From: Verrucomicrobiota bacterium
GTDB taxonomy: Bacteria > Verrucomicrobiota > Kiritimatiellia > CAIVKH01
DNA: 64,000 nucleotides
Direction: 5' to 3'
Assembly: GCA_024233345.1 (NCBI GenBank)
Contig: JACKPT010000011.1
Location: 71,516-135,515, forward strand
Shown: in pieces, positions 2,605 through 62,749 of the stretch
Numbering within the stretch: the first letter of the stretch is position 1
Layout of the letters: each line of letters begins with the position of its first letter
The notes under the pieces: model-generated
What the model was told of the DNA's origin: nothing
Seen by the model: only the letters and a program-made list of their open reading frames with translations
Databases searched by the model: none
Position numbers and translations under genes: made by a program

Positions 2605-3261
2605 TTACCTCCTGGAGAACGGGATGAAATGTACCAGTAAACGATAGGGATCATAGGGCCGTCCCTCTTCATTGAACACCTCAAAGTGCAGGTGCGGGGC
2701 TACCGCCATCCACCGGCGGGCGTCCGCACTGGCGCTGGTGGTTCCCATGGTTCCAATGGATTGACCGGCGCTTATCCACTGACCGGGCATGACGGTAATG
2801 GCATCCAGATGGGCATACAGGGTAAAGAAGACCCGTCCGGAAATCGGCCAGATATGTTCGATGATGACATGACGTCCAAGAATGCTTTGGTCGGGTAATG
2901 TCGTCACCTCGGATACCCGGCCCTCGGTAACGGCAGCCACTGAATCCACGGGAAACACCCCGGGGACAGAGATGGGAATGTCGGTGCCGTTACGGCAGTC
3001 GGTCATAACGACATCAATGATCTGGCCGGTCGGACGGGTTTCCCAGGCCGCGATATCGCATCCATGATGAAAGCGGCGCCCGCAATCACGGGTCCACCCG
3101 GGCAACCCATAGAGCGGATTCCACAGGGTGCGGGCGGTGTAGCGATCAGGCGCGGTATGGAGATCGGTGCGCAGGGTAGGCCAGTGCCATGGGCATCCCT
3201 CCTCGGACGGGGGCGATAGGAACGTGGTGTTGGCAATCGATCGTGTGGGAGGCGCGTTCAT
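2605..3261 (-). CDS. M23-family (LytM-like) metallopeptidase
   Basis: 218 aa with HHGCDIA (HxxxD) and LYAHLD...APHLHFEV (HxH) motifs. ATGA overlap with the upstream gene at 3258-3261. Confidence 0.75.
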   Translation of the reverse strand: MNAPPTRSIANTTFLSPPSEEGCPWHWPTLRTDLHTAPDRYTARTLWNPLYGLPGWTRDCGRRFHHGCDIAAWETRPTGQIIDVVMTDCRNGTDIPISVPGVFPVDSVAAVTEGRVSEVTTLPDQSILGRHVIIEHIWPISGRVFFTLYAHLDAITVMPGQWISAGQSIGTMGTTSASADARRWMAVAPHLHFEVFNEEGRPYDPYRLLVHFIPFSRR

Positions 3262-6118: not shown

Positions 6119-7152
6119 GGCGTATCGGAACCGGAATCATCCGGCGCAGCTTGCTTATCCACCGGGGCGAGCAGCGCGGTCAGCCGGGCATCAACCTCGG
6201 AGCGGGAAACCGGCCCGGTCGGGGTGGGGGGCTCCTGGGGACGGGCGAGATATTCCGCGACACCATGATCGGCGCCAACCCCGCTGGCATCCGTTTCCGC
6301 GTTACGCGCCTTTTCCACGACATCGAGGAAAATCTGCTCGAGATCCCGGCGCGGATGATCGACCAGGGGCGGCGTACCGGATTCCTGCTCCACCCGGGTC
6401 TGGATGGCCTCGATGCTGGCGAGGTCATAACCCTCCGGGAAGGTCATACGGTAACGGCCGGTTTCCTCGAGCAATGCATCGAGCGTCCCCATGGCCCGGA
6501 TGCGTCCATTGTACAGAATCGCGACCCGATCACAGAGGTCTTCGACATCCGCGAGGAGATGGGAGGTCATGAGAATGGTTTTACCGCGCCGGGCCAGAGT
6601 CAGAAGCAGATCCTTCATCTGACGGCAACCCAGTGGATCAAGACCGGATGTTGGTTCATCCAGAATAATCAGGTCCGGATCGTTGATCAGAGCCTGCGCG
6701 ACCCCGATGCGCCGGGTCATTCCTTTGGAAAATTCGCCCACAATCCGATTGCGGGCCTGTTGGAGCCCGATCATATCGAGCAACTGGGCGATGCGCCGAC
6801 TGCGCTCAGCCCGGTTGAGATCAAACAGGCGACCATAAAAATCGAGGGTCTCCCATGAGGTGAGATAGGGGTAGATGTAGGAGTTTTCCGGCAGGTAGCC
6901 CAGGCGTTTCTTGACCTGCACATCGCTGGGGGATTTGCCCAACACCGCAATCCGTCCGCGGGAGGGATGCAACAGGCCCAGCAAGAGTTTGATGGTGGTG
7001 CTCTTGCCGGACCCGTTGGGACCGAGCAGTCCAAAGATTTCCCCTCGCCGGACCTCGAAGTCGACATCCCGGACCGCAGTCACTCGAGGCCGGTGCCAGA
7101 AATCGCGGAATACCTTGGTCAGTTGCTGAACCTGGATCAGGGGCTCGGTCAT
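6115..7152 (-). CDS. ABC transporter ATP-binding protein (with ~100-aa C-terminal extension)
   Basis: Walker A GPNGSGKST, signature-like FSKGMTRR, Walker B LIILDEPTSGLD, H-loop TSH. 345 aa. Confidence 0.9.
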   Translation of the reverse strand: MTEPLIQVQQLTKVFRDFWHRPRVTAVRDVDFEVRRGEIFGLLGPNGSGKSTTIKLLLGLLHPSRGRIAVLGKSPSDVQVKKRLGYLPENSYIYPYLTSWETLDFYGRLFDLNRAERSRRIAQLLDMIGLQQARNRIVGEFSKGMTRRIGVAQALINDPDLIILDEPTSGLDPLGCRQMKDLLLTLARRGKTILMTSHLLADVEDLCDRVAILYNGRIRAMGTLDALLEETGRYRMTFPEGYDLASIEAIQTRVEQESGTPPLVDHPRRDLEQIFLDVVEKARNAETDASGVGADHGVAEYLARPQEPPTPTGPVSRSEVDARLTALLAPVDKQAAPDDSGSDTP

Positions 7153-9059
7153 GGGGTCTTTTCCGTTTGTGCGTGTTCGATCCGGATAAGTCGTGCGCTG
7201 TTGAAAACGACGATCAGCGAACCCAGGTTGTGGGCAATGGCTGCAGGGACCGGGGGGAGCCAGCTAATTCCGGAGAGGATCAGCCCCCCGAGAATGAAGA
7301 GGCCGGCAACGGCAAGGTTCTGATAAACCGCAGCCCGGGCATCACGCGAGAGGCGGATCAAGTAGGGTATGCGCATCAGATCATTATTCATCAGGGCCAC
7401 GGTGGCGCTGTGGATCGCGATATCATTGCCGGCCGCCCCCATGGCAATGCCCAGATCCCCAGCGGCAAGGGCCGGGGCATCGTTGACACCGTCGCCGATA
7501 AACGCGGTGCGGTATCCTTGGGCGTGGATGTGGCGAACATAGTCCACCTTTTGGGCGGGGAGACATTCGGCTTGCACTTCCGGGCAGCCGATGCGGTCGG
7601 CAATCATTCGGGTCACCACTTCCCGGTCCCCTGAAATCATGGCAATCTTCCGGATATTCAAATCCACCAGGCCGCGCAATGCCGGAGCCGCTTCGGGCCG
7701 CACCTGGTCTTCCAGACCAATCCAGCCCACATACTGTCCATCCTTCGCCACAAACAATGTGCTGTAGACCGCGCTGTCTCCGGATTCAGCGGCATCAAGC
7801 CGGGGATCCTGGATGCCCAATTCACGGAGCCAACTGGCCCGACCGCATTGGACAAGGGATCCGGCGACCTGGGCGGTAACACCCCGGCCCGCCGTCTCTT
7901 CCATGGACTCCGGATCGCCCAGAAGAAGGCCGGTTTGCTCGGCAAGTTTGCGCAATGCGACGGCCACGGGATGTTTGCTGAATTTCTCCGCAGTGCCAGA
8001 CCATTCCAGAAGATCCGATGGGGAGATGTCCGCCACGGGGGCAAGCCGGGCCACACCGAGTTCACCCAGGGTCAGGGTACCGGTCTTATCAAAAATCACC
8101 GCATTGATCCGCGCGGCGCCTTCGAGGTCAGAGACATTCTTTACCAGGATTCCATTGCGGGCGGCCGCCGCGAGGGCTGCAACCATGGCCGTCGGGGTTG
8201 CGAGAATCAGGGCACAGGGACAGGAGACCACCAGCATTGCGATGACCCGGTTCCAATCGCCGGTAAAGAACCATACTGCGGCGGCGAGGGTCAGCACCAC
8301 GGGTATGTAATAGCGAAGATACTGGTCGATGATGCGGGTAATGGGGAGTTTGGTCTGTTCTGCGGCCAGGATCAGTTCGCGCACTTTACCGAGGGCGGTT
8401 TCTTCGCCGATGCGACTGACCCGGACCTCGACCGCTCCGGTCAGGTTCTGGGTTCCGGCAAAGACCTGATCCCCGGGGCCTTTGTCCCGCGGAATGGACT
8501 CCCCGGTGATGGTCGCTTCATTCAGGGTGGTCTGGCCGAGGATCAGTTCGCCATCGGCCGGGACCGAGTCACCGGGGAGGAGGCGGATTCGATCCCCCAC
8601 CACCAATGCCGAGGCGGGTATTTCCTCCGATTTCCCGGCGGGCAGAATTCTCCTGGCCATGGCCGGGGTCAGGCGAATCAGGGCCTCAATCGCTCCATGG
8701 GCGCCTTTTGCGGTCTGGGTTTCGATGACCAGGGCAAGCAGCATGAAAAACGCTACGATCCCCGCAGTGCGAAAGTCTCCAAGTGCGAGCGCGGAGAGGA
8801 CCGCAATGGCGACTGGCGCATCCATGTGGAGCTCTCCCCGGAACAGATCCCGCACCGCCGACCACACGATGGGTGCCGCCAGCAGCAGGGCCCCGATCAC
8901 CGCGCTGATCTCCGCAGCCATCGGGTTGTCGGGGTAAAGAAGATCGCCCGCGTACGCAGCGATGACGAAGGCGGAACCGGTGAACAGCCAGCTCAGCCGA
9001 CCGGAACGGTCGGCGTGATCGCAGCATCCAATGGCGTGACTGTGGGATTCCGCTTTCAT
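7149..9059 (-). CDS. heavy-metal-translocating P1B-type ATPase (Zn/Cd/Co-like)
   Basis: 636 aa. TGES, CPC (VSCPCALILATP), DKTGTLT and GDGVNDAP motifs. No ferredoxin-like HMA domain, but a His/Cys-rich N-terminus (HSHAIGCCDHAD). Confidence 0.9.
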   Translation of the reverse strand: MKAESHSHAIGCCDHADRSGRLSWLFTGSAFVIAAYAGDLLYPDNPMAAEISAVIGALLLAAPIVWSAVRDLFRGELHMDAPVAIAVLSALALGDFRTAGIVAFFMLLALVIETQTAKGAHGAIEALIRLTPAMARRILPAGKSEEIPASALVVGDRIRLLPGDSVPADGELILGQTTLNEATITGESIPRDKGPGDQVFAGTQNLTGAVEVRVSRIGEETALGKVRELILAAEQTKLPITRIIDQYLRYYIPVVLTLAAAVWFFTGDWNRVIAMLVVSCPCALILATPTAMVAALAAAARNGILVKNVSDLEGAARINAVIFDKTGTLTLGELGVARLAPVADISPSDLLEWSGTAEKFSKHPVAVALRKLAEQTGLLLGDPESMEETAGRGVTAQVAGSLVQCGRASWLRELGIQDPRLDAAESGDSAVYSTLFVAKDGQYVGWIGLEDQVRPEAAPALRGLVDLNIRKIAMISGDREVVTRMIADRIGCPEVQAECLPAQKVDYVRHIHAQGYRTAFIGDGVNDAPALAAGDLGIAMGAAGNDIAIHSATVALMNNDLMRIPYLIRLSRDARAAVYQNLAVAGLFILGGLILSGISWLPPVPAAIAHNLGSLIVVFNSARLIRIEHAQTEKTP

Positions 9060-9063
9060 GGCA

Positions 9064-10122
9064 TTAGTGACCTGAGTATCCGGAGGGGGAAGATGGGGTG
9101 GCCTTGGGTTTCCCGATCTGGATGCGCAACTCGCGTCGTCCGCCAGGGTCAGCAGGAATCAAGTACCGCTGTTCCGCCTGCTGCAAAGCTGCCTGGATGG
9201 CATCTTCGCGCAACATGCCAAGGATCGTGTCCGGGTCGCCGGAGATGCTTTCTCTGATCCGGGTAAAGGTGTTGGCATCCGCATTCAGTTCATTGAGCAT
9301 GCGTTCTTTCTCGGCTTGTCCTTCAGCGCGCAGGCGGTCGGCATCACCAGCCGCTTCATTACGGGCTCGCGTTGCATAGGCCCGGGCTTCGCTGATTTGC
9401 TGGGACTGATCCTGCTCGGCGTCGATCACGTCGTTGAAGGCCAGCAGCACCTGACGTGGTGGGATAGTCGCGGTGAGATCCACACCTTCCACCGTGATCC
9501 CAAGGTTGAGCTGGGGCAGTCGCGCGCGCAGTTCCGCCTCCACGGTGGCTCGGAACTCATCCATCTTCGTGCGTAAGGCATCGTCGATCCTGGTCGCTGC
9601 GGATGCGCGGACGATGGCCCGATCGAGTTCCCGGCGAAGCAGGGCATCGGGATCGATGTGGGACAGGGCATAGGCCTTGAGATCCTGCACCCGGTACCGC
9701 AGGGTCCAGGCGGAATGAAAAATATTTGCATCGGCGGAGACACTATAGCCATCCCGCCCCGGGACAAGGGGTTGCCGCTCGTCGATAGCCATGAGGTTGG
9801 TGTCGATCCCGGTGCGCTGGTACCAGAAGGTGTCGGTTCCGAGATCTCGAATGCGCTCGGCGGGGAACCGGAGAATTTCCGAGAACGGGGTCGGCCAGGT
9901 CCAGTGGAATCCCGGTTCGAGTATTTGGTTTCCAGCCATGCCCCGCGCCTTGCCCAAAACCAGGACCATGGCCTTCTCCTGTTGGCGCACAATGAAGAAT
10001 CCACTGCCAAGGTAGGCCACAACGAGCGCGAACAAGACCCATCGCAGGAGCCGGAAACTCTGCTCGAGCGCCTGCGCGAGGGCCTTCTGACCGATCGTCT
10101 GGGTGGAGTCGGTTTCGTTCAT
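9064..10122 (-). CDS. SPFH/band-7 protein, HflK-like
   Basis: 352 aa. N-terminal TM (WVLFALVVAYLGSGFFIV), then an SPFH core (EPGFHWTWPTPFSEILRFP...GITVEGVDLTATIPPRQVLLAFNDVIDAEQ) and a coiled-coil tail. Confidence 0.8.
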   Translation of the reverse strand: MNETDSTQTIGQKALAQALEQSFRLLRWVLFALVVAYLGSGFFIVRQQEKAMVLVLGKARGMAGNQILEPGFHWTWPTPFSEILRFPAERIRDLGTDTFWYQRTGIDTNLMAIDERQPLVPGRDGYSVSADANIFHSAWTLRYRVQDLKAYALSHIDPDALLRRELDRAIVRASAATRIDDALRTKMDEFRATVEAELRARLPQLNLGITVEGVDLTATIPPRQVLLAFNDVIDAEQDQSQQISEARAYATRARNEAAGDADRLRAEGQAEKERMLNELNADANTFTRIRESISGDPDTILGMLREDAIQAALQQAEQRYLIPADPGGRRELRIQIGKPKATPSSPSGYSGH

Positions 10123-11003
10123 GGTTGGGGAGGCGGGTTCAATAGATCAAACGGAGCCCGATCTGTGCCGAGAATCACCGTCGCCTGCTCGGACAGGGTA
10201 TCCCGGAGAACATCCAGTTTTTTGAGGAAGATTGCCAGTTCGGGATCCTCGGAAAAGACGGTATAATAGGCGACCGCAGCGGCATCGCCTTCGGCGCGGA
10301 TGCGCTTGGCATCGGCTTCGGCCGTGGACAGGATGCGATCGGCTTCACTGTCCGCCTCGGCGCGGATGCGAATGGCTTCTCCCTCGCCCTCCGATCGATA
10401 GCGTTCGGCGAGTTCCTGCCGCTCGGCCCTCATTCGATCAAACACCGAAAGGGTAATGGCCTGGGGAAGTCCGATCCGCCGTATGCCCACAAAGCCGACA
10501 TCAATCCCGTACCGGTCGGCAGCCTGGGGCTGAATCCCCTGCAACACATCGGCCTCAATACGGTCCAGTCGCAGGGCTGATGCCGAGGTGTTGACCAGGT
10601 TGGAAAAGGCTACCCGTCCAATCGCCGAATTCTTGTAGGTATCCAACAGGCCGGAAAGGTTCAGTTCGGCGAGCTCGGTGCTGCCCTGTCGTTCGAGGAA
10701 CTTGGTCGGTTCGGATATCCGCCATCCGCAATACATGGACACAATCACATTCTTGCCATCGGCGGTCAGGGTTTCCGAGAGCGCGCTCTCCATGACCCGG
10801 GTGCGCCCATCAAACCGGAAGACCGACTGAATCGGCCATGGCCACCGCGAATAGAGGCCGGGGGTTTGCAGGTCCCGCACCGGTTTGCCGAAGGTGGTGA
10901 CAACGGCGACCTCGCCTTCCCGTACCACAAATAAAAATTGGGTCATCAACAGGATTCCGAGGATCAGTAATCCGACCAGAATCATGGGAATCTGCTTGTT
11001 CAT
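10119..11003 (-). CDS. SPFH/band-7 protein, HflC-like
   Basis: 294 aa. TM (MILVGLLILGILLMTQFLF), then VVREGEVAVVTTFGKPVRDLQTPGLYSRWPWPIQSV...GIDVGFVGIRRIGLPQAI and an Ala/Glu/Arg-rich coiled coil. ATGA overlaps on both sides. Confidence 0.85.
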   Translation of the reverse strand: MNKQIPMILVGLLILGILLMTQFLFVVREGEVAVVTTFGKPVRDLQTPGLYSRWPWPIQSVFRFDGRTRVMESALSETLTADGKNVIVSMYCGWRISEPTKFLERQGSTELAELNLSGLLDTYKNSAIGRVAFSNLVNTSASALRLDRIEADVLQGIQPQAADRYGIDVGFVGIRRIGLPQAITLSVFDRMRAERQELAERYRSEGEGEAIRIRAEADSEADRILSTAEADAKRIRAEGDAAAVAYYTVFSEDPELAIFLKKLDVLRDTLSEQATVILGTDRAPFDLLNPPPQP

Positions 11004-12856
11004 GGATTTATTCCTTCCGGTTCAAGGGGAACCATCTCAAAAACGCTGGTAAAGGGATCATCCTCCAGGTTGAGCCAGAGAACTTCTGATGACGCCGACG
11101 GGGTGGCGAGCAACACCAGCCGGTTGCCGATCAATCCCGCGTGGAGAGCTTCCATGGCCAGCCGGGCCCGATATACATCCGGGGCGGTATCGGCGGCCCG
11201 CTTCCGGTTATGGAATTGCGCAACTTCGGCCTCTGATAACTTGGTGCGCCGATCGCGATAGGCCTCGGCGAGGCTGACCCGGGCGGTGGCATCGGCGGTG
11301 GCGAGGGGAAGGATCCGATTGGTATAGGCGCGGGCTTCCAGGATAGCCGCTTCCTTTTCCTCCAGTGCCCCTACCACGGACTGGAATGCATCGGCGACCT
11401 GGATCGGGGGATGCAGGCCCTGCAGCCCGATGAAATCGATCTTCACCCCCAGGGCAAGCCGGTTACACTCCGCCTGAAGTTCGCGGTGTATGATGTCCGC
11501 AATTTCCGTGCGGTGCGAACTGAGCCATTCGCCGATATCTCTTGAGGATAACTCGCGGGTCAGTATCCGGTAGGCGGTATCGCGGAGTACCTGGTTGGGA
11601 TTTGCATAGCGATAGGCGTAATCCAGTGCATTGGTGATGGAAAACTCGAGCGGAAGATGCAGGCTGATCAGGTTGATGGGCACCGCACTGCTTCCCTTGT
11701 GGCTCAAACTGGCCGTGACGAACAGGTCTTCGCCGGGGAAGTGCGGCACCGTCCACAGGATTTGTGGGGGGCGCAGCAAGGTGTCATCGACGTCAACCCC
11801 GAGATGGGTTAGCAGCGCCATCCGGGCCGGAACCCGGCGAACCGCCTCAAATGGCCAGGGCCATTTCCAGTGGAAGCCGGACATGAGCAGAGGGTCCGGT
11901 TGCACCGGCTTGCCGAACCGCTCTTTGATTCCCACATCATTGGGCCCGATGATGGCCATGCTGGAAAGGGCATAAATGACGAGTATTTGAAAACCCGCGA
12001 AGGGCAACAGCGCCCGTCGAAGAAACCGGGCAAACCAGGTGCGGGAAATTGAAAACCCGAACTGGTAGTCGACAGACTCGGAAAGGGGCTTGGTCCATTC
12101 CGATGGATGAATCAGCCAGGCCCCGAGTTTGGTTTCGTAGCTTGTGGCCTTCTGGGTGTCCCGGTGGGGACTGTAGATACTCAACAAGCTGTTCCAGACC
12201 AGTTCCACCGTATGCACAACCAGCAGCACCACCAGGGTCATGCCGATCCACGCATCTGCCTGGACCAGCCCCACATGATGGGCAAGGCAGGCGAGGGCGG
12301 CGGCTACCGACCCATAGGCGGTGACTCCGGTCATCACTCCGGGCCCCCGCAACCAGCGCAGCGACGGCTCCCCGGCAAGACCGAGCAAATAGCGATGGAG
12401 CAGAAACAACACAAAGCCCTGCCCGGCCAGCAAGGCCATCGCGGGCAGGTCGAATGAAGATTCACGGGCGGTCCAAACCAGGTCGCGGTACAAGGTCCAG
12501 GCCCAGGTTGCGGTGAGGATGGCAAGGACCGGAGCGATGAAGGGTACAATGCCTTCGACCTGATGACGGGTGCGGGAGAGGGTCAGAGGGAGATCTCCCC
12601 CGGATGTTTCATCAAACAAACGCGAGTCCGCAGTCGGCGCTTGCCCAGCGAGATCCCTCGCCTCCTCGAAGGCCATCCGTTCCAGACGGAGCCGCAGATA
12701 GACCACGCAAGACTGGATCAGGGCAAGCATCTGAAATGGCATGAGACCGGAGAACACCAGCAGGCCGGAGCGGGAGCCCATGGCGCTGGACGCCGCGATG
12801 GACAAGACCATCAGGCCTGCGGAGACCAGAGCCGCTCTTTCCCCGGTCCGGGTCAT
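11000..12856 (-). CDS. polytopic membrane domain (~330 aa) fused to an HflK-like SPFH domain
   Basis: The ORF track gives 11000-12925. The ATG at 12856 (MTRTGERAAL...) forms an ATGA overlap with the upstream stop at 12853. About seven hydrophobic segments by eye, then IKERFGKPVQPDPLLMSGFHWKWPWPFEAV...GVKIDFIGLQGLHPPIQVADAFQSVVGALEEKEA. Confidence 0.75.
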   Translation of the reverse strand: MTRTGERAALVSAGLMVLSIAASSAMGSRSGLLVFSGLMPFQMLALIQSCVVYLRLRLERMAFEEARDLAGQAPTADSRLFDETSGGDLPLTLSRTRHQVEGIVPFIAPVLAILTATWAWTLYRDLVWTARESSFDLPAMALLAGQGFVLFLLHRYLLGLAGEPSLRWLRGPGVMTGVTAYGSVAAALACLAHHVGLVQADAWIGMTLVVLLVVHTVELVWNSLLSIYSPHRDTQKATSYETKLGAWLIHPSEWTKPLSESVDYQFGFSISRTWFARFLRRALLPFAGFQILVIYALSSMAIIGPNDVGIKERFGKPVQPDPLLMSGFHWKWPWPFEAVRRVPARMALLTHLGVDVDDTLLRPPQILWTVPHFPGEDLFVTASLSHKGSSAVPINLISLHLPLEFSITNALDYAYRYANPNQVLRDTAYRILTRELSSRDIGEWLSSHRTEIADIIHRELQAECNRLALGVKIDFIGLQGLHPPIQVADAFQSVVGALEEKEAAILEARAYTNRILPLATADATARVSLAEAYRDRRTKLSEAEVAQFHNRKRAADTAPDVYRARLAMEALHAGLIGNRLVLLATPSASSEVLWLNLEDDPFTSVFEMVPLEPEGINP

Positions 12857-13818
12857 TGATGAACCTCCATCATCCGAAAGCTGGCGATTCCCCACAGCAG
12901 AATACCGATCATATAGAGCCCGCAATAGTGTGCGACCTGGAATACATACGGCCAGGGGATGTCCCCGTGATTGAGCGCATCAACCGCCCAGAAGTTCTGC
13001 CAGTTGGGGATGAGCAGATACAGAAGCCGCAGCGCTTCATTGGTTTGGGCATAGGGACCGAGGAGGTAGTCTGACATCAGGCCGACCATCAGAATCACCG
13101 CGCACATCATCATCGTTCCGGTCAGCCCCAACCGGGTGGAAAGTGCCACCGCAAACGAGCAAAACAGAATCACCGCCAACCCGATGAGAGCCGCAGCGGG
13201 CAGGACCGACCATGGCATGAACGACTCCGCCCCCCCCGACATCTGTCCCGCGCTGCGCCAGAAAACCACTGCAAATGCGAGGACCACGCTGATCAGAACG
13301 TCCCGAAACGCCCCCGAGGTAAAGGGGGAACGGAACAGAAAATTGCGGAGACCGGAAACCGTAAACGCTCCCAGAATACCCAGGTAGAGCGAACCCAGGG
13401 TCCACCAGTCGATTCGATAAAGTACCCGGACCGCATGGATGGCCAGCAGCGAGGCCAGGGTAGCGGCAAAGATGAAGGCCGTCATCACCACGACTATGCC
13501 GAAAAACTTGGCAAGGAAAAACAGGGAGCGGTTCATGGGCTTGGTCACCACCGACGCCAGCGTACCCAGCCGCAATTCCCGGGAAATAGTCGACGCTGCG
13601 CCATAGCAACCCAACAGCAAGCCCGCCATCCAGAAGAGGGCCAGTGAGCTATCGCGGATCATCCGGGTCGCTTCGCCAAGTACATGGGTGATCAACAATG
13701 GGAGTAATCCAATAAACAACAGGGTACTGGCGCTGAGCAACAGAAACGCGGGCTGGCGGGAAGCCTCCAGCGTGGTTTGCCGGGCGACCGTACTGAATTG
13801 CTTGAGGGCAAGACGCAT
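12853..13818 (-). CDS. ABC-2-type permease-like integral membrane protein
   Basis: 321 aa, hydrophobic throughout. The motif STISRELRLGTLASVVTKPMNRSLFFLAKFFG matches the same family as the 456-aa permease. First gene of the long minus-strand operon. Confidence 0.65.
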   Translation of the reverse strand: MRLALKQFSTVARQTTLEASRQPAFLLLSASTLLFIGLLPLLITHVLGEATRMIRDSSLALFWMAGLLLGCYGAASTISRELRLGTLASVVTKPMNRSLFFLAKFFGIVVVMTAFIFAATLASLLAIHAVRVLYRIDWWTLGSLYLGILGAFTVSGLRNFLFRSPFTSGAFRDVLISVVLAFAVVFWRSAGQMSGGAESFMPWSVLPAAALIGLAVILFCSFAVALSTRLGLTGTMMMCAVILMVGLMSDYLLGPYAQTNEALRLLYLLIPNWQNFWAVDALNHGDIPWPYVFQVAHYCGLYMIGILLWGIASFRMMEVHQ

Positions 13819-14019
13819 GAAGTCAAACTACCATATGGACCATCCGTTTTGCCAGTGTAACCCACAGGCAGGCCAGAGTTGGATGGCGATTGTGTGACGA
13901 TATGAAAAATGGAATGGTTCGGCTGAAAGACAGGGTCATGCGGGAAAAATTCATTTTGTGCGGGGGAGGGGACCCGATGTGTGATAGTCTTGCCCAAACG
14001 ATCAACGGAGGAGAGCCTC

Positions 14020-14163
14020 ATGGCCAAACCAAACTATTCCTATGAGAAACGACAACGAGACCTCGCGAAAAAGCGGAAGAAAGAGGAAAAACGCCTGAAA
14101 AAGGCCGGTCAGGCGCCGAATAGCGATTCGAGTACTGCGAATCCATCCGCACCCGGGCTTTGA
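14020..14163 (+). CDS. small Lys/Arg-rich protein (hypothetical)
   Basis: MAKPNYSYEKRQRDLAKKRKKEEKRLKKAG... The ATG at 14020 is preceded by GGAGGAG. The track's longer start at 13981 lacks an RBS. Confidence 0.4.
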   Translation: MAKPNYSYEKRQRDLAKKRKKEEKRLKKAGQAPNSDSSTANPSAPGL

Positions 14164-14268
14164 ACCCCGGCCCGCCCGCCGGGAGCGCCAAAATGTATTT
14201 CAACATAAACGCTTTCAAACCGCTGGTGTTTAGGATAGGGTGCGATTTAATTAAGGAGTGAGTATATT

Positions 14269-14472
14269 ATGAGTAAAGGTACAGTGAAGTGGTTCAATGT
14301 TGAAAAAGGGTTCGGTTTCATTGCTCCGGACAATGGTGGCAAAGATCTGTTTGTTCATCATTCGGAAGTGAAAACCCCCGGCCGGGCGGATCTCGCCGAA
14401 GGCCAGAAAGTCGATTTTGAAGAAGGTGAAGGCCAAAAGGGCCCGTGCGCGAAAAACGTCGTACCTTGCTGA
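14269..14472 (+). CDS. cspA: cold-shock protein (CspA family)
   Basis: [32 protein letters not shown] carries the RNP1/RNP2 motifs. AAGGAG lies upstream. Confidence 0.95.
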
Positions 14473-14485
14473 TGACTGACTTGAA

Positions 14486-14525
14486 CCGGGGGGCAGGCCG
14501 ATAAGCCTACCTCCCGGTTTTTTTT
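14486..14525 (+). terminator. rho-independent terminator after cspA
   Basis: CCGGGGGGCAGG / CCTACCTCCCGG imperfect stem with loop CCGATAAG, followed by a run of eight T. Confidence 0.75.
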
Positions 14526-14798
14526 ATCTGAAAAATTCCCGCCTTTTTACCTGCACGTAATTGCATCGGACAATCCCGATCAAGGGGCAGGTCATCATCC
14601 TGAATGGCTTGTGTTACAACACCCAATGCGGGTGTATTATTGCCACAATAACAACGTCGCATAATATGTATTATGTCTAGCATCGAGCGTTCCATTCCGC
14701 CATTCGTGGTAGCTTGCGGTTGATAGGATGCTCAGGCACCGCAAGGCGTATTGCCATTTACGGATGGCCCTCCGGTCATCACCAGCTGCACGTGCTGT

Positions 14799-16274
14799 TC
14801 ACGAGGATGACTGGTGCAGTTGCCGATAGATCTTCTCGTACTCGGCGGCACTTTGATCCCAAGTATAGTCGCCAGCCATGCCACGATTCTGTAGATCCCG
14901 CCAGGCTTCTGCTTTCCGGTCGAAGCATCGAATCGCGCGCTGAACGGCATCCTGGAATGCCTTTACCGTATAGTCGGAAAAAACGAATCCATTGCCATTG
15001 GTCTGGCTGTTATCCGCATCGGTGACTGTGTCGGCCAGTCCGCCGGTATGATGAACGACCGGAACAGTGCCGTACCGCATGGCGTAGAGCTGATTGAGAC
15101 CGCAGGGTTCATACCGGGATGGCATCAGGTATAGATCCGCCCCGGCAATGATCTGCCGGGCCAACACCCGATCAAATGCATTCATGACCCGGATCCTGCC
15201 TGGCCAATGAGATTGCCATCGCAAGCACATGCCCTCGTATTGGGCATCGCCATCACCCAGTAAAATCAATCCCAGATCCGAATGACTGCCCATCAGGTCG
15301 GGAATCATTTCATCAAGCAAATCAATTCCCTTGTGCTCGGACAAACGGGTCACCATCCCCAACAACGGTCCCCGGTCAGGTATGCTCAACTCCGCCAGCT
15401 TGAGTAAAGCCCTTTTACAGTGTTGCTTGCCGGAAGGGTCTTTGACCGAATAGTTCTTGGCCAGTGCGGAATCGGTCTGTGGATCCCAGGTCTGGGTATC
15501 GATGCCGTTGGTGATGCCGCGCAGGCGATGTCGGGCATCCGAGATCACGCCATGGAGTCCGTAACCAAAAGCCTCGGTTTGAATTTCCTCGGCATAGGTC
15601 TGGCTCACCGTGGTCAGGAAATCGGCGGTATTGATACCACCTTTCAGGCAATTGATGTTTCCATAAAACTCCAGGCATTCAACGGAAAAACAGCCGAAGG
15701 GAAGGTTGCTGTAGGAGTATTCATCACCGGAAAAGATTCCCTGGTAGGCAAGATTGTGGAGCGTCAGCAGGGTCTTTTCCCGCTTGCCCCTCCCCTGCCC
15801 TCGGACACCATGTTGGAGATATAAGGGCATCAATGCGGTTTGCCAGTCATTGCAATGGACCAAAGATACCGGGCGCTCCAGCGCATCGATCAAAGCGACC
15901 GCAGCTTTTTGAAAGAACACAAACCGCTCAAAATTGTCCTCATAATCACGGTAGGATAAATTGTAGAGGTGCGCCCGGTCGAAGAATTCATCCCGGCGAA
16001 TGAAGTACTTGGCGGGTTGGATTTCCGGGGCGGTGCGCCAGACCTCGGCCCGGAATTGATGGAACCCCACCGGGATGTTCAAGACCATCCCGGTTTCCAC
16101 CAGTGGAAAATTTCCCTCGATGACTTGACGATACATGGGCATGATCTGAATCATGGACCAACCACGCCGCGCCATGGCTTCCGGCAGGGAGGCGGAAACT
16201 TCAGCCAACCCCCCGGTCGAGGCAAACGGACTCATCTCGCTGGTAATAAACGCACAATGCCCTTGATCTGCCAT
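14799..16274 (-). CDS. glgA: glycogen synthase
   Basis: 491 aa. N-terminal FITSEMSPFASTGGLAEV, plus the C-terminal GT-B region ...PSRYEPCGLNQLYAMRYGTVPVVHHTGGLADTV. Confidence 0.9.
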   Translation of the reverse strand: MADQGHCAFITSEMSPFASTGGLAEVSASLPEAMARRGWSMIQIMPMYRQVIEGNFPLVETGMVLNIPVGFHQFRAEVWRTAPEIQPAKYFIRRDEFFDRAHLYNLSYRDYEDNFERFVFFQKAAVALIDALERPVSLVHCNDWQTALMPLYLQHGVRGQGRGKREKTLLTLHNLAYQGIFSGDEYSYSNLPFGCFSVECLEFYGNINCLKGGINTADFLTTVSQTYAEEIQTEAFGYGLHGVISDARHRLRGITNGIDTQTWDPQTDSALAKNYSVKDPSGKQHCKRALLKLAELSIPDRGPLLGMVTRLSEHKGIDLLDEMIPDLMGSHSDLGLILLGDGDAQYEGMCLRWQSHWPGRIRVMNAFDRVLARQIIAGADLYLMPSRYEPCGLNQLYAMRYGTVPVVHHTGGLADTVTDADNSQTNGNGFVFSDYTVKAFQDAVQRAIRCFDRKAEAWRDLQNRGMAGDYTWDQSAAEYEKIYRQLHQSSS

Positions 16275-19519: not shown

Positions 19520-19912
19520 AGTGGCTCGGGAGGTTGTAAGCCGAATTCTGTTCCCCGCAACTGCGAGGCCATGATCATTTATCTCGCTGATGTCAGCATA
19601 TGCGATCAACCCGAAGCTTTCAGCCCGAAGGCAACGAGGCGGGCCGCCTCTCGCTTCCTATTTGATCTTGCTCCAGATAGGGTTTACCTGCGGCGACCCT
19701 TGCGGATCCACCCGGTGGTCTCTTACACCGCCGTTTCACCCTTACCCCGCAGATGCGAGGCGGTATTGTTTCTGTGGCACTAGCCATCAACAGGCTTTTC
19801 GCCTGCCGTTCCCCTCCCCGCTCAAAGGCGGCCCTGGGGATATCCTGCCCTGTGGAGTCCGGACTTTCCTCCCCGCGCGAACGCGAAGCGATCATGCCCC
19901 TCCCGAACCGCC
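19520..19912 (-). ncRNA. rnpB: RNase P RNA, bacterial type A
   Basis: The reverse complement contains GGGGAGGAAAGTCCGGACTCCAC (P4 strand), GGGTAAGGGTGAAACGGCGGTGTAAGAGACCACC and GAACAGAATTCGGCTTAC (second P4 strand). The 5' GGTTCGGGAGG pairs with the 3' CCTCCCGAGCC (P1). Ends are approximate to +/-5 nt. Confidence 0.88.
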
Positions 19913-20755: not shown

Positions 20756-21571
20756 ATGGAGTTGGAACCGGCTCTGCGGCCTTACCGGGGAGCTCCCATG
20801 ACCTGTTTTCTCCTCTGGGGACTGGTCGTTTGCTGCCTGGCCATGTCCCTTCTGTGGGTGGTTCAGTATCGGACCCTGAACGCCGGTTTGGTCGATGCAG
20901 GCTGGGCCTCGCTGATCGCCCTGCTGGCGATCAGTGCGGCAGTTTGGTTCGAGGGCGAGCCGGTGCGCAGGATCCTGCCTGCGACCATGGCAGCTCTCTG
21001 GGGAGGCCGACTGGCCTGGCTGGTGCACCAGCGGGGCCATGGCAAACCGGAGGAGGGACGCTACAAGGCCCTGAGGGACCATTGGGGCGCCCTCGCCCAG
21101 CCCAAGTTCTTTGCCTTCTTCCAAGTCCAGGCCCTCGCCGCCTTGCTGTTCAGTCTCCCCTTTGTCCTGACCATCCAGGCCGGAGATCAGCCGTTCGGGT
21201 ACCTTGAGTGGATCGCGATCGCCCTGTGGACCGGTGCATTTTTCGGTGAGGCCACCGCCGACCGCCAATTGTCCCGGTTCAAACAGAATCCAGACCACCG
21301 GGGCAAGGTTTGTGATCAGGGATTGTGGCGGTATTCCCGTCATCCCAATTACTTTTTTGAATGGCTTATCTGGGTCTCCGCCGCCTTGATGGCGTTCCCT
21401 GTCCCTTTGGGATGGGTGGCTATTGCCTGCCCTCTGGCCATCCTGTTTTTCCTGCTGCGTATCACCGGGATACCCGCCACCGAAGCGCAGGCACTGCGCA
21501 GCAAAGGCGAGGCTTACCGGCGATATCAGGAAACGACGAGTCGCTTCATTCCCTTACCCCCAAAATCATAA
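20756..21571 (+). CDS. DUF1295 / steroid-5-alpha-reductase-like membrane protein
   Basis: 271 aa, polytopic. The C-terminal motif GLWRYSRHPNYFFEWLIWVS is typical of the family that accompanies cfa-like genes. Confidence 0.8.
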   Translation: MELEPALRPYRGAPMTCFLLWGLVVCCLAMSLLWVVQYRTLNAGLVDAGWASLIALLAISAAVWFEGEPVRRILPATMAALWGGRLAWLVHQRGHGKPEEGRYKALRDHWGALAQPKFFAFFQVQALAALLFSLPFVLTIQAGDQPFGYLEWIAIALWTGAFFGEATADRQLSRFKQNPDHRGKVCDQGLWRYSRHPNYFFEWLIWVSAALMAFPVPLGWVAIACPLAILFFLLRITGIPATEAQALRSKGEAYRRYQETTSRFIPLPPKS

Positions 21572-21584
21572 AGGACCTCCTGCC

Positions 21585-22619: not shown

Positions 22620-22665
22620 GCGGGGCTCCGGCCTCCGAATTTTTTGAGGTGCCCTGTCTTTTCCG

Positions 22666-23445
22666 GTGGATTCCGGCAACGGACCTGATAGGGTTCAGGC
22701 AGTACGGCTTGCTGTACCAGACGTGAAAACCAAACTTAAGCTCGATATCCTGCCCCAACCTGATGACACGACCTGCGGCCCCACCTGCCTGCATGCGGTC
22801 TATGCTTATTACGGTGATCATATCCCCCTCCCCCGTGTGATCGCCGAGGTCACCACACTGGAAGCCGGGGGTACCCTCGGAGTCCTGCTCGCCAATCATG
22901 CCCTGCGGCGGGGATACCGCGCAACGATCTACACCTTCAATCTGCGCCTGTTCGATCCAACCTGGTTCCTTTCTTCCGACATCGATATCACCAGCAAATT
23001 GCAGGCCCAGGCCGCGTTGAAGAGCGATCCGAAACTTCAGTTGGCCTCGCATGCCTATATCGATTTTCTCGCCCTGGGGGGACGGCTGAAACTGGAAGAC
23101 CTGACGCCGGCCCTGTTGCGCGGCTACCTGAACCGTCAACGGCCCATCCTGACCGGACTCAGCTCCACCTATCTCTATCAAACCATGCGGGAATATGGCC
23201 GGGCCATGGTGGATGATGATCTCCGTGGCGATCCCGCAGGCCACTTTGTCATCCTGCGCGGATACGACAAGGACAAGCGCACCATCGATGTGTCCGATCC
23301 GCTTGAATCCAATCCTTATGCCGCCGATCAGCACTATGAGCTGCCGATCAATCGCGTGCTCTGTTCCATTTTACTCGGCATCGTGACCGACGACGCCAAC
23401 CTGTTGATCATCGAACCCCACCCCAAGACCAACCTCAACCGGTGA
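22666..23445 (+). CDS. papain-like (C39-like) cysteine peptidase, cytoplasmic
   Basis: 259 aa. LPQPDDTTCGPTCLHAVYAYYG (catalytic-Cys context) and AGHFVILRGYDKD (His context). No signal peptide. Exact start uncertain. Confidence 0.6.
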   Translation: MDSGNGPDRVQAVRLAVPDVKTKLKLDILPQPDDTTCGPTCLHAVYAYYGDHIPLPRVIAEVTTLEAGGTLGVLLANHALRRGYRATIYTFNLRLFDPTWFLSSDIDITSKLQAQAALKSDPKLQLASHAYIDFLALGGRLKLEDLTPALLRGYLNRQRPILTGLSSTYLYQTMREYGRAMVDDDLRGDPAGHFVILRGYDKDKRTIDVSDPLESNPYAADQHYELPINRVLCSILLGIVTDDANLLIIEPHPKTNLNR

Positions 23446-23452
23446 ATGCATC

Positions 23453-24916
23453 ATGATTCGTCTGATTGTCGTCGATAATCCCAAGAAATGGCCCCTGCAT
23501 ATTCCGGGCGCCGAAGTCGTCCAGGCCCGTAAATACATCACCGAGGATACCTTTACCCGGATGACCGACGTGCGGGTGTTTAATTTATGCCGGTCCTATC
23601 GCTATCAAAGCACCGGTTACTATGTCTCCCTGCTTGCCGCCGCCCGCGGCCACAAGCCGATCCCTGACGTGTCCACCATCCGTGATCTTCAAACCCCGAC
23701 CGTCATTCGCCTGGCCACAGAGGACCTGGACTCCCTGATCGAAAAGAGCCTCGATGATCACAAGGCCGATTCCTTCACCCTCAGTATTTATTTTGGTCAG
23801 AATCTTGCCAAACGGCACGAGCGGCTCAGCCTTCAACTCTTTAATCTATTCCGGGCCCCTCTGCTCCGCGCCGAGTTGCGCCGGGTCGATGAGCGCTGGC
23901 GGATCCAGAACATATCCCCGATCGCCATCAGTGATGTGCCCGAATCGCACCGGCCCTTCCTGGTCACTGCGGTCACCGAATATCTCGCCGGACGGCATGG
24001 GCGCGTGCGACCCCGCAAAAAGCTCACCTATGATCTGGCCATCCTGGCCAGCCCATCGGACGAAACCGCCCCCTCCAACCCCAAGGCACTGGAATGCTTC
24101 ATGGATGCCGCGGAAAAGATCGGGCTGGATGCCGAACTGATCGACCGGGACGATTACGCGCGCCTGCCCGAATATGATGCATTGTTTATTCGCGAGACCA
24201 CCTCGGTGACCAACCATACCTTCCGATTCGCCCGGCGGGCCGAGGCCGAGGGTCTGGCGGTGATGGACGACCCCCAGTCAATTCTCCGCTGTACCAACAA
24301 GGTCTATCTGGAGGAGTTGATGAAACGACACCGGATCCCGACCCCGAAAACCGTGATTGTCCACCGGGACAATCTGGAGCTGCTGCCATACCAGATCGGT
24401 TTCCCCCTGATCCTGAAACAGCCGGACTCTTCCTACTCCATTGGGGTGATTAAAATCGAGAACCGGGAGCAACTGGAAGTCGAGGGCAGACGAATGCTTT
24501 CCGATTCAGAGCTCCTGATTGCCCAGGAGTTTCTGCCCACCGAATATGACTGGCGCATCGGGATGCTCGATGGCAAGCCTCTCTATGCCTGCCGCTACTT
24601 TATGGCCAAGAAGCACTGGCAGATTGTGCAGCGCAAGGAATCTCGTGTGGAGGAGGGCCGGGTGGAGGCGGTGCCGGTCCTTCGGGTGCCCGAGCCTGTG
24701 GTCAAGATGGCGGTCAAGGCCTCGCGGTTGATCGGGACCGGTCTCTATGGGATTGACCTCAAGGAAACGGGCAAGCGGACGGTGGTCATTGAGATCAATG
24801 ACAACCCGAGCCTGGATGCGGGTTTCGAGGATCAGGTGTTGAAATCCCGGTTGTATGATCGAATTATGCGGAGCTTTTTGCGACGCATCCGGGAAAATAA
24901 AAGGTTTTCCTCATGA
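23453..24916 (+). CDS. RimK-type ATP-grasp ligase with N-terminal RLAN-like domain
   Basis: 487 aa. The C-terminal half has RimK-like ATP-grasp blocks (FPLILKQPDSSYSIGV, LIAQEFLPTEYDWRIGMLDG, GLYGIDLKETGKRTVVIEINDNPS). The N-terminal ~190 aa (VFNLCRSYRYQSTGYYVSLLAAARGH) resembles the RimK-like ATP-grasp N-terminal domain as I remember it. Confidence 0.85.
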   Translation: MIRLIVVDNPKKWPLHIPGAEVVQARKYITEDTFTRMTDVRVFNLCRSYRYQSTGYYVSLLAAARGHKPIPDVSTIRDLQTPTVIRLATEDLDSLIEKSLDDHKADSFTLSIYFGQNLAKRHERLSLQLFNLFRAPLLRAELRRVDERWRIQNISPIAISDVPESHRPFLVTAVTEYLAGRHGRVRPRKKLTYDLAILASPSDETAPSNPKALECFMDAAEKIGLDAELIDRDDYARLPEYDALFIRETTSVTNHTFRFARRAEAEGLAVMDDPQSILRCTNKVYLEELMKRHRIPTPKTVIVHRDNLELLPYQIGFPLILKQPDSSYSIGVIKIENREQLEVEGRRMLSDSELLIAQEFLPTEYDWRIGMLDGKPLYACRYFMAKKHWQIVQRKESRVEEGRVEAVPVLRVPEPVVKMAVKASRLIGTGLYGIDLKETGKRTVVIEINDNPSLDAGFEDQVLKSRLYDRIMRSFLRRIRENKRFSS

Positions 24917-26181
24917 CCTACGCGCTGTTCGAGTGTGTCGGTATCGAATTGGAATACATGGTGGTGGATCCCATCCACGGCGGGGTTCTGCCCATGGCTG
25001 ATGCGTTGCTACAGGCACTCGCACTACCGGACGGGGGCGATACAAACCCCTCCGATGTCACCCGCGGACAGGTAAGCTGGTCCAACGAGTTGGTGAATCA
25101 TGTCGTGGAGCTGAAGGTTACCGATCCGGTTCCCTCACTCAAGGGATGCGGCGACCTCTTTCACCAGGCGCTCCGGGAATGCCAACCGCAGCTGAATAGC
25201 CTGCCCGTGAAACTGATGCCCACGGCGATGCATCCATTGATGAATCCGGCGGTTGAAACCGTACTCTGGCCGCACGAGTACCGGGAGATTTATCAGACCT
25301 ATCACCGGATCTACGATTGCTATCGACACGGCTGGGCCAACGTCCAGTCGGTTCACATAAACCTGCCCTTTCGGGGGGACCGGGAATTCGCGGTCTTGCA
25401 TGCGGCGATCCGGGCCCTGCTCCCGCTGTTACCCGGTCTTGCTGCGGCCTCGCCAATTCAGGAGGGACGCCTCACCGGCATTCGGGACAACCGGCTGATT
25501 GCCTATGCCGGCAACTCCTTACGGATTCCCCAGGCTACCGGCCAGGTGATCCCCGAACCAATCACCTCCGAGGCCGAGTACGATGCAATCATCATGCAAC
25601 CGCTGTATCGCGCGGTTCTTCCCCATGATCCCGGGAAAGTCTTGCAGCATGAATTTCTCAATTCCCGCGGAGCGATCGCCCGGTTTGATCGCGGCGCCAT
25701 CGAAATCCGCCTGCTGGATGTGCAGGAATGCCCCTCGATGGACATCGCGATCGCCGAGGCGGTGATTCATGCCCTGCGTCAGTTGGTCAGCCTGCATTGG
25801 GCAAGCCGCGGAGCCGCATTGAATGCCATTCCCACGGACCTTCTTCGCCTCCACCTGGACCGGGCGATCATCGATGCAGAAGAAACCCGAATTGACGACG
25901 CGGACTACCTGCGACTGCTCGGGCTGCCCGGTTTGCATTGCCCTACCCTGAGTGATGTTTGGAAATGTTTCACCGAAAAGCTCTCGCCCGAGGACCGTGC
26001 CACCAGTGCCGGTCTTGACCTCCTCAGCCGGGAAGGCACGCTCGCCACCAGAATCGCCAGGACCCTGCCGCCATGCCCCGACGAAGACCAGATTCGCACC
26101 CGATATTCCGGTCTTTGCGAGCACTTGATGCGCAATCAACCTTTTTCAGGGCTGGGGACGGATGCCAGCGAAGCGATGTGA
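24913..26181 (+). CDS. GCS2/YbdK-like carboxylate-amine ligase
   Basis: 422 aa. The N-terminal GIELEYMVVD and overall pattern match the glutamate-cysteine-ligase family 2. ATGA overlap with the ATP-grasp gene. Confidence 0.7.
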   Translation: MTYALFECVGIELEYMVVDPIHGGVLPMADALLQALALPDGGDTNPSDVTRGQVSWSNELVNHVVELKVTDPVPSLKGCGDLFHQALRECQPQLNSLPVKLMPTAMHPLMNPAVETVLWPHEYREIYQTYHRIYDCYRHGWANVQSVHINLPFRGDREFAVLHAAIRALLPLLPGLAAASPIQEGRLTGIRDNRLIAYAGNSLRIPQATGQVIPEPITSEAEYDAIIMQPLYRAVLPHDPGKVLQHEFLNSRGAIARFDRGAIEIRLLDVQECPSMDIAIAEAVIHALRQLVSLHWASRGAALNAIPTDLLRLHLDRAIIDAEETRIDDADYLRLLGLPGLHCPTLSDVWKCFTEKLSPEDRATSAGLDLLSREGTLATRIARTLPPCPDEDQIRTRYSGLCEHLMRNQPFSGLGTDASEAM

Positions 26182-62672: not shown

Positions 62673-62749
62673 CGGGGCGTGGCTCAGCCTGGTAGAGCGC
62701 TACGTTCGGGACGTAGAAGTCGCTGGTTCAAATCCAGTCGCCCCGACCA
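62673..62749 (+). tRNA. tRNA-Pro (anticodon CGG), CCA encoded
   Basis: Cloverleaf by hand: acceptor CGGGGCG/CGCCCCG, D-arm GCTC-AGCCTGGTA-GAGC, anticodon arm CTACG-TTCGGGA-CGTAG, T-arm GCTGG-TTCAAAT-CCAGT, discriminator A, then CCA. Confidence 0.9.

Follow-up and report, generated by a model that had tools for sequence, protein, structure and literature searches.

The 64-kb window analysed here, a stretch of 64,000 nucleotides from a contig of a Verrucomicrobiota bacterium, carries on its plus strand a cassette of three genes (gene 1, g1; gene 2, g2; gene 3, g3). Their predicted products are a C39-like cysteine peptidase, a ligase in which an RLAN module precedes a RimK-type ATP-grasp module, and a second ligase of the GCS2 family. 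This cassette is very widespread, has been predicted previously, and is not characterised in the searchable literature; the window contains an ordinary three-gene member of the system and adds no biology beyond that. Domains were called with Pfam hidden Markov models (HMMs), curated subfamilies were tested against NCBIfam cut-offs, and AlphaFold2 (AF2) models of g1 and of the RLAN module were compared to the PDB with Foldseek. The features of the locus, with g1 given in its longest open reading frame (ORF), are as follows:

22666 to 23445, plus strand: g1, predicted stand-alone cytoplasmic C39-like papain-fold cysteine peptidase (Pfam, alignment of 33 homologs, AF2 and Foldseek)
23453 to 24034, plus strand: N-terminal RLAN module of g2 (Pfam RLAN match at 23525-23965)
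24035 to 24916, plus strand: RimK/LysX-type ATP-grasp module of g2, comprising a pre-ATP-grasp and an ATP-grasp domain (Pfam RimK, catalytic residues)
24913 to 26181, plus strand: g3, predicted divergent carboxylate-amine ligase of the GCS2 family, with the glutamine-synthetase fold (Pfam GCS2, conservation among 64 homologs)
22620 to 22722, plus strand: intergenic leader from the CFA-synthase stop to the probable g1 start, with a weak terminator-like hairpin and T-run (22621-22645)

Gene layout of the cassette

The ORFs of g1 (22666-23445, 259 aa, starting with GTG), g2 (23453-24916, 487 aa) and g3 (24913-26181, 422 aa) follow each other closely. Read in the DNA, the TGA stop of g1 is followed by the seven nucleotides ATGCATC (23446-23452) and then by the ATG of g2, and the ATGA at 24913-24916 forms the g2/g3 overlap, through which the translation of g3 is coupled to that of g2. 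The ORF list and the DNA thus agree with an initial annotation of this stretch, which had described three co-directional genes, the first two 7 nt apart and the last two overlapping by ATGA.

The longest ORF probably extends g1 too far upstream. Most g1 homologs are 234-250 aa long, with the equivalent of 'MKTKLKL' at the N-terminus, and because these lengths and N-termini match it, the GTG at 22723, which would give a protein of 240 aa, appears to be the likelier start. With this start, the gap to the stop of the preceding CFA-synthase gene (22619) is 103 nt; the 46 nt stated initially hold for the longest g1 ORF. Within the leader, a terminator consensus scan matched 22621-22637 plus the T-run, and folding of this hairpin had no advantage over shuffled sequence (z = -0.63), so that it is not convincing for or against read-through from cfa in this organism. 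A scan of the leader for sigma-70-like promoters gave no match, and neither did an Rfam search at E<=1, by which no riboswitch or other known RNA was found there. At the other end of the cassette, the last 46 nt of g3 (26136-26181) overlap the 3' end of a convergent gene for a YkuD/ElsL-like L,D-carboxypeptidase; in a close relative (locus L084), g3 is 15 aa shorter and does not overlap its convergent neighbour.

No signal peptide or transmembrane segment was predicted in g1, g2 or g3, and all three proteins look cytoplasmic; for g1, this bears out the initial annotation, which had seen no signal peptide. The sole hydrophobic peak lies in g1 and falls on a helix and a strand that are buried in its confidently predicted model.

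Domains and predicted activities of the three proteins

The product of g1 (residues counted from the GTG at 22666) matches the Pfam families Peptidase_C39_2 (8.7e-8, 33.3 bits, cut-off 24) and Peptidase_C39 (PF03412; 1.4e-4, 22.2 bits against a cut-off of 22, with no single stretch passing alone), and no NCBIfam model. The oxyanion Gln31 (22756-22758), Cys37 (22774-22776), His193 (23242-23244) and Asp211 (23296-23298) are invariant across 33 g1 homologs and align with the catalytic residues of the C39 domains of ComA, PCAT1 and LahT. The sequence contexts DDTTCGPTCL and GHFVILRGYD, from which the peptidase was originally recognised, are both present, and the invariance extends beyond the catalytic Cys and His, whose absence would have undermined that assignment, to the Gln and Asp. 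The best Foldseek matches of the AF2 model (predicted local distance difference test score, pLDDT, 84) are C39 double-glycine peptidase domains, namely 6mpz (E 4e-6, TMt 0.74), PCAT1 and ComA; more remote ones are PeiR, a Bacillus C39-like protein, xylellain, the phytochelatin synthase Alr0975 (glutathione acyl-enzyme; E ~5e-4) and AvrRpt2. Relative to the ~140-aa C39 domains, g1 has a helical insertion of ~60-100 aa at about residues 98-160.

In g2, the Pfam RLAN match (9.4e-51, 171.9 bits, cut-off 25) covers residues 25-171, and the match to the RimK ATP-grasp (3.5e-10, 40.2 bits, cut-off 21) covers residues 282-455. The RLAN-like N-terminal domain of ~190 aa proposed initially is right when the linker is counted. 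The ATP-grasp part aligns to residues 53-269 of Escherichia coli RimK, and K322, D435 and E447-x-N449 match the catalytic Lys, Asp and ExN of RimK; these residues are invariant in 12 cross-phylum g2 homologs. Among the curated models, those of RimK, LysX, MptN and CofF are matched, with CofF and MptN among the best NCBIfam hits, and g2 stays below the cut-offs of both the RimK equivalog NF007764 (34.7 bits, cut-off 331) and the rimK_fam model TIGR00768 (74.8 bits, cut-off 143.4). The protein is basic (pI 9.1). Its homologs number in the thousands at 55-60% identity, in Kiritimatiellia, Verrucomicrobiota, Planctomycetota, Gammaproteobacteria, Desulfobacterota and others; the closest ones retrieved by the homolog search are from Kiritimatiellia (73% identity).

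The RLAN module carries the ultra-conserved motif FNLCRSYRYQSxGYYVSLLAAARGHKPxP, and its invariant residues are N44, Y51, Q52, G55-Y-Y-V, R65, P71, F114 and W149. This set differs from the catalytic set of the ATP-grasp, and we therefore infer that the role of RLAN is non-catalytic. The same signature is kept in a GNAT-fused subfamily and in forms lacking g1 and g3 (see below); because it persists where these partners are absent, RLAN would belong to the ligase itself rather than provide a docking site for partner proteins. All top Foldseek matches of the RLAN model (residues 1-198, pLDDT 85) are ATP-grasp enzymes, with LysX (1uc9) first (E 5.5e-5, TMq 0.57) and further matches to ArgX, PPIP5K2/Asp1, the D-Ala-D-Ala ligase Ddl, RimK, synapsin and biotin carboxylase. 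In this model, the module looks like a truncated ATP-grasp fold, made of a pre-ATP-grasp domain and one alpha+beta subdomain. It is not a duplicate of the ATP-grasp that can be detected in the sequence: hhalign of RLAN against the ATP-grasp part of g2 gave a probability of 1.2%, and a search of PDB sequences with the RLAN profile found nothing, which leaves the likeness seen with AF2 and Foldseek. An exhaustive phmmer search with RLAN alone yielded only 806 clusters at 50% identity, and the RLAN family is thus compact.

The product of g3 matches Pfam GCS2 over residues 9-290 (2.1e-24, 86.9 bits, cut-off 21). Among 64 homologs, 51 positions are at least 97% conserved, including E12, E14, E59, H63, E66, H107, R252, E264 and R266, acidic, His and Arg residues that are typical of glutamine-synthetase-fold ligases, where they are predicted metal and ATP ligands. 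A phmmer search of the PDB with g3 found no relative. The scores against the NCBIfam models of the YbdK family (TIGR02050; 39.8 bits, cut-off 176.4) and the glutamate-cysteine ligase subfamily (41.3 bits, cut-off 332) are far too low for membership. HMM searches thus confirm the three domain assignments of the initial annotation (C39-like, RLAN plus RimK, GCS2), and the NCBIfam scores of g2 and g3 speak against an ordinary RimK and an ordinary YbdK, the outcome that it had named as fatal to its interpretation. Because the catalytic residues are conserved in each of the three proteins, all are very probably active enzymes.

Distribution, gene neighbours and related architectures

In a species scan with one genome per species, a g2 homolog was found in at least 600 genomes. 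Synteny was counted in the best 80 of these loci, which represent more than 15 phyla, including Kiritimatiellia, Verrucomicrobiota, Planctomycetota, Bacteroidota, Acidobacteriota, Nitrospirota, Desulfobacterota, Myxococcota, Fibrobacterota, Gemmatimonadota, Spirochaetota and Proteobacteria. The complete triad, in the same order and on the same strand, is present in ~70 of the 80 loci; g1 lies directly upstream of g2 in 75, and g3 lies directly downstream on the same strand in ~72. This arrangement is far beyond chance, and the recurrence of the triad across phyla removes the concern, raised at the outset, that the three genes might not co-occur elsewhere. The median junctions in the sampled loci are -4 nt for g1/g2 and +8 nt for g2/g3, compared with +7 nt and -4 nt in the window. 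Pairwise distances among the homologs correlate between the three proteins (Mantel r 0.49-0.69, p<=0.001), as expected of co-inherited genes, with the species phylogeny adding to the signal.

A gene of the FGase family (N-formylglutamate amidohydrolase, PF05013) directly follows g3 in 45 of the 65 loci with room for it, that is, about 70% of the cassettes have a four-gene form with an FGase-type amidohydrolase. The 64-kb window lacks an FGase gene (the best tblastn match has E = 0.26), as does the close relative L084; one is present in a Kiritimatiellia relative (L081). The three-gene form is a common variant. What the initial annotation overlooked are the frequent fourth gene and the probable shorter g1.

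Besides FGase, no family reached three loci on one side in a Pfam scan of the nearest flanking ORFs of the 80 loci, and all-against-all clustering of the flanks likewise revealed no recurrent neighbour: no precursor peptide, conserved small ORF, target protein, exporter or regulator recurs next to the cassette. The cassette is self-contained. With no precursor, target, exporter or regulator linked to it, its substrates should be common cell constituents.

These flanks bear directly on the idea that the cassette makes a bacteriocin or another ribosomally synthesised and post-translationally modified peptide (RiPP), with the C39 peptidase trimming the double-glycine leader of a precursor modified by the ATP-grasp ligase, as in graspetides. 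The double-glycine leader peptidases (PCAT1, ComA, LahT150) are indeed the best structural match to g1 and share its fold and its Gln/Cys/His/Asp tetrad. However, g1 is a stand-alone protein (240-259 aa) with a helical insertion, and like the other cassette proteins it is predicted to be cytoplasmic; no ABC-transporter fusion, linked ABC transporter or other exporter, double-glycine-leader precursor or conserved small ORF recurs next to the cassette in the 80 loci, and in the window just 46-103 nt are available upstream of g1. Furthermore, the ATP-grasp of g2 is of the RimK/LysX type, not of the graspetide type. We consider a RiPP pathway very improbable.

Anti-phage defence was likewise rejected, as the PADLOC models gave no match for g1, g2 or g3; a search of a phage collection returned only weak, partial ATP-grasp matches. 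An apparent g1-g2 fusion, a 775-aa ORF at locus L070, proved to be an upstream read-through in a high-GC genome, with g1 in another frame. In a further protein, P0342 (318 aa), the C-terminal part of C39_2 is joined straight to RLAN, which could be a genuine fusion or an artefact of a frameshift or the assembly.

The conserved gene order and the flanks also bear on the possibility that three unrelated housekeeping enzymes (RimK, YbdK and a peptidase) lie together by chance, or that they form a module tied to the DUF1295 and CFA-synthase genes immediately upstream. The latter genes are on the same strand, the gap is short and no convincing terminator separates them from g1, and the initial annotation had accordingly suggested co-expression. 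Against this, the order of the triad is kept across phyla and the curated RimK and YbdK cut-offs are not reached; CFA synthase adjoins the cassette in none of the 80 loci and DUF1295 is near it in a single one, on the opposite strand. In the relative L084, whose g2 is 74% identical to that of the window, the downstream genes YkuD, PcnB, sulfotransferase and DinB are kept and a DEAD-box helicase gene lies upstream. Given these counts and this synteny, the adjacency in the window is incidental, the suggested link to the lipid genes is not supported, and this explanation as a whole is extremely improbable.

The RLAN-RimK ligase also occurs in other architectures. Beside the ~490-aa form, there is a GNAT-RLAN-ATP-grasp protein of ~645-650 aa, 43% identical to g2 over 480 residues, which is widespread in Acholeplasmataceae, Izemoplasmataceae, Clostridia, Bacilli and Bacteroidales. 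Such proteins are annotated merely as 'GNAT family N-acetyltransferase' and appear to be uncharacterised. The GNAT domain of the fused relative scores best against RimI (58.5 bits, cut-off 86.4). Three divergent genomes with a fused gene were checked, those of Maribellus (L085, 7001-8956) and of the metagenome-assembled genomes of an Acholeplasmataceae (L086, 7001-8938) and a Clostridia member (L087, 7001-8950), and in all three no C39, GCS2 or FGase gene was found within 7 kb.

Stand-alone RLAN-RimK genes, 42-44% identical to g2, were found in Azospirillum chromids, Tistrella, Legionella and one Pseudomonas aeruginosa record. The partner genes are absent at the P. aeruginosa (L088, 4902-6491) and Azospirillum (L089, 5001-6449) loci, and three other RLAN-RimK genes (L028, L060 and L079) likewise lack partners, so the ligase is not strictly dependent on g1 or g3. 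The P. aeruginosa gene is flanked by aatJQMP, pagP and a gene for a short-chain dehydrogenase/reductase, which we take to be the PA1339-PA1344 region of strain PAO1; the RLAN-RimK gene would then be PA1345. PA1345 appears in two papers, in both only as a hypothetical protein; one of them gives it a candidate CpxR box (PMC12802237). In Francisella tularensis, deletion of the 'rimK' gene FTT0178, which encodes 490 aa, did not cause attenuation in mice (PMC2675058); judged by its length, FTT0178 is probably an RLAN-type protein.

Possible function of the cassette

The gene content, two ligases plus one or two hydrolases, suggests a pathway for making and unmaking amide bonds. Our preferred reading, to which we assign a probability of roughly 0.45, is the cytoplasmic synthesis and turnover of a small gamma-glutamyl or glutamate peptide, similar to glutathione or to N-acetyl-aspartyl-glutamate (NAAG); the cassette would build and break down this peptide independently of the ribosome. 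Ligases of the GCS2 type, with the glutamine-synthetase (GS) fold, form an amide bond between an amine and a carboxylate that they first activate, in the classical case the gamma-carboxylate of glutamate. In the proposed pathway, g3 would turn a gamma-carboxylate, most likely the one of glutamate, into an acyl-phosphate and link it to an amino acid X through the amine of the latter; the result would be gamma-Glu-X, which is N-capped. ATP-grasp ligases of the RimK clade put L-glutamate or another amino acid on a terminal carboxylate, which may belong to a protein (S6, LysW) or to a small molecule, and the characterised RimK, CofF, MptN and RIMKLA/B all add alpha-linked L-glutamate. Thus, g2 might add at least one alpha-linked L-glutamate at the free carboxylate of gamma-Glu-X to form a glutathione-like gamma-Glu-X-Glu(n); its pI fits acidic substrates. 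Within the ligase, RLAN would be a non-catalytic, ATP-grasp-like module, probably for acceptor recognition or assembly.

Turnover would fall to the hydrolases. Papain-fold enzymes such as phytochelatin synthase hydrolyse or transfer gamma-glutamyl peptides, and g1 may similarly cleave or transfer the gamma-glutamyl unit, either as an amidase or as a transpeptidase. FGase cleaves the N-acyl-glutamate bond, the reverse of RimK-type ligation, and the enzymes of this family are small-molecule amidohydrolases; where present, the FGase-type N-acyl-glutamate amidohydrolase would take off the C-terminal Glu. The chemistry of all these steps is modelled on family precedent.

A close precedent is the logic of glutathione and phytochelatin synthesis, which employs the same three folds in the same roles: a GCS2-type gamma-glutamyl ligase, an ATP-grasp extender and a papain-fold thiol peptidase or transpeptidase. 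The phytochelatin synthase Alr0975 is among the structural matches of g1 that speak for this model. The cassette differs from it in that g3 is far under the GshA and YbdK cut-offs, g2 is RimK-type rather than GshB-type, and g1 is nearer to C39 than to phytochelatin synthase; any thiol chemistry of the cassette is hypothetical. Glutathionylspermidine synthetase/amidase and BtrJ/BtrH of butirosin synthesis also combine an ATP-grasp amide ligase with an amidase or acyltransferase of the papain superfamily, acting on the same gamma-glutamyl type of small molecule. Their papain-like partners belong to the CHAP and BtrH_N families, not to C39_2, and a Pfam search of the cassette at E<=0.01 gives no match to them.

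The nature of the acceptor is suggested by the GNAT-fused form and its analogs. The NAAG synthetases RIMKLA/B, to our knowledge, have no RLAN module. As RimK-like ligases, they attach Glu to an acidic acceptor that is small and N-capped, and so make N-acetyl-Asp-Glu (PMC3872778). Ngg, the GNAT enzyme of N-acetylglutaminylglutamine amide (NAGGN) synthesis, encoded together with AsnO and the peptidase PA3461, both acetylates and forms the peptide bond, yielding N-acetyl-Gln-Gln (PMC8070244). The GNAT-RLAN-ATP-grasp proteins mirror this combination by analogy, and the window cassette differs from both systems in using a GCS2 ligase instead of a GNAT. The fused proteins do not appear to be Ngg itself: the NCBIfam hits of g2 and of the GNAT-fused relative P0338 include no NAGGN-type model, the Ngg-type one presumably being TIGR03103. 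That the fused form carries a GNAT, a capping enzyme, instead of partner genes suggests that the N-terminus is capped before ligation, by GNAT or GCS2, and that the acceptor used by RLAN-RimK is already capped, the cap possibly being acetyl in the GNAT-fused form and gamma-glutamyl, supplied by GCS2, in the cassette.

Several points weigh against a small-molecule product. Protein C-termini, those of S6 and LysW, are the substrates of RimK and LysX, which are the best-studied enzymes of the clade and, among solved structures, the nearest to the ligase module of g2; GS-fold ligases can ligate proteins too (PafA). The nearest structural relatives of g1 are C39 domains that cleave peptides or proteins, not small-molecule amidases. 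The very strong conservation of RLAN, ~55% identity across phyla, would equally fit the recognition of a conserved macromolecule, and RimI, the best (below cut-off) match of the GNAT domain, is a protein N-terminal acetyltransferase. Finally, stand-alone RLAN-RimK genes occur without the partner genes.

The main rival is that a conserved protein, encoded elsewhere, is reversibly glutamylated or tagged. Here, GCS2 would make a gamma branch or tag (as PafA does) and RLAN-RimK would elongate it with alpha-Glu (as RimK does on S6 and TTLLs do on tubulin), with the C39-like peptidase and FGase as erasers (isopeptidase, deglutamylase) and RLAN docking the target. The protein substrates of RimK and LysX, the structure of g1, the conservation of RLAN and the RimI-like GNAT all speak for this rival, as does a gene content that can be described as a writer plus an eraser. 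Known systems that pair a ligase with a protease include the rimK-rimB operon of Pseudomonas, where the partner is RimB (PMC10092738). The cassette resembles that pair in coupling a ligase to a peptidase, and the C-terminal module of g2 shares the RimK/LysX-clade ATP-grasp with the same Lys, Asp and ExN. It departs from the pair in the length of g2 (487 aa, with the extra RLAN), in the papain-fold C39-like peptidase and in the GS-fold second ligase that is always present in the cassette. The g2 score far short of the RimK equivalog cut-off counts against protein glutamylation, as do the lack of a linked candidate target gene in all 80 loci, the activity of known RimK-like enzymes on small acceptors as well, and the small-molecule substrates of FGase enzymes. 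On balance, protein glutamylation is a serious contender, if a doubtful one. A more specific version of it, a bacterial counterpart of the eukaryotic TTLL/CCP system in which RLAN, as a degenerate ATP-grasp module, would be the target-recognition domain, is unlikely; the GCS2 enzyme would then initiate the gamma branch on a housekeeping target, RLAN-RimK would be the alpha-elongase, and the C39-like isopeptidase and FGase deglutamylase would be the erasers.

A longer Glu-rich oligomer or polymer, such as primed poly-alpha-glutamate or a cyanophycin-like reserve or osmolyte, might also be produced if GCS2 made the primer, RLAN-RimK polymerised and the hydrolases mobilised the product. One report describes poly-alpha-glutamate synthesis by RimK in vitro (PMC10375531). 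Reserve polymers typically pair a ligase with a hydrolase, and the basic g2 would also suit such a product. Nevertheless, no granule, export or regulatory genes are linked to the cassette in the flanks of the 80 loci, and the stand-alone GNAT-fused form fits a capped short peptide better, so that we regard a polymer as quite unlikely.

Full-text searching of the open literature turned up no study in which the cassette, the RLAN domain or PF14401 is characterised, in keeping with the statement in the initial annotation that no product had been defined for this architecture. The RLAN definition and predictions of such gene neighbourhoods reportedly go back to the amidoligase study of Iyer et al. 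2009. Thus, the interpretation offered initially holds for the domains, the triad and the non-ordinary character of the ligases, and fails for the lipid-gene link. New here are the FGase fourth gene in ~70% of the cassettes, the lack of any other conserved partner and the rejection of the lipid link, as well as the revised g1 start, the predicted ATP-grasp-like fold of RLAN and a stand-alone subfamily with a fused GNAT, which hints at an N-capped acceptor. With a g2 homolog in at least 600 species genomes, the cassette is among the more widespread enzyme systems without an assigned product. It would not surprise a specialist in comparative genomics, yet it is an attractive and readily testable orphan that unites two ATP-dependent amide ligases of different chemistry with one or two hydrolases and has no further component. 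What it makes should prove to be a metabolite of the glutathione or NAAG kind or else a protein modification, new in either case, and relatives exist in tractable organisms, namely the PA1345-like gene of P. aeruginosa, the Azospirillum genes and probably FTT0178 of Francisella.

The cassette lies in a context of chromosomal housekeeping genes, namely those for glycogen synthase, RNase R, RNase P RNA, PcnB, DinB, LptF/G and HtpG. Upstream of the cassette, the longest CFA-synthase ORF (TTG at 21423) overlaps the DUF1295 gene by ~150 nt (21423-21581), and the matches to the CFA-synthase family begin at about residue 70-116; the true start is probably the ATG near 21582, just past the DUF1295 stop. 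The RNase P RNA is of class A (19521-19907, minus strand; Rfam RF00010, 218.5 bits, full length), and the long ORFs over this stretch are spurious. The region 13819-16000 shows a dip in G+C content (0.523 for 14001-16000, compared with ~0.58-0.60 elsewhere); a ~1-kb stretch in it (13819-14798), upstream of the glycogen/starch synthase gene, is devoid of ORFs of at least 120 aa. Nine tightly packed co-directional ORFs, several of them of 450-640 aa, occupy 3258-13818 on the minus strand and look like a large membrane or ABC-type transport operon. The sole tRNA gene of the window, for tRNA-Pro (CGG), is located at 62673-62749 on the plus strand.

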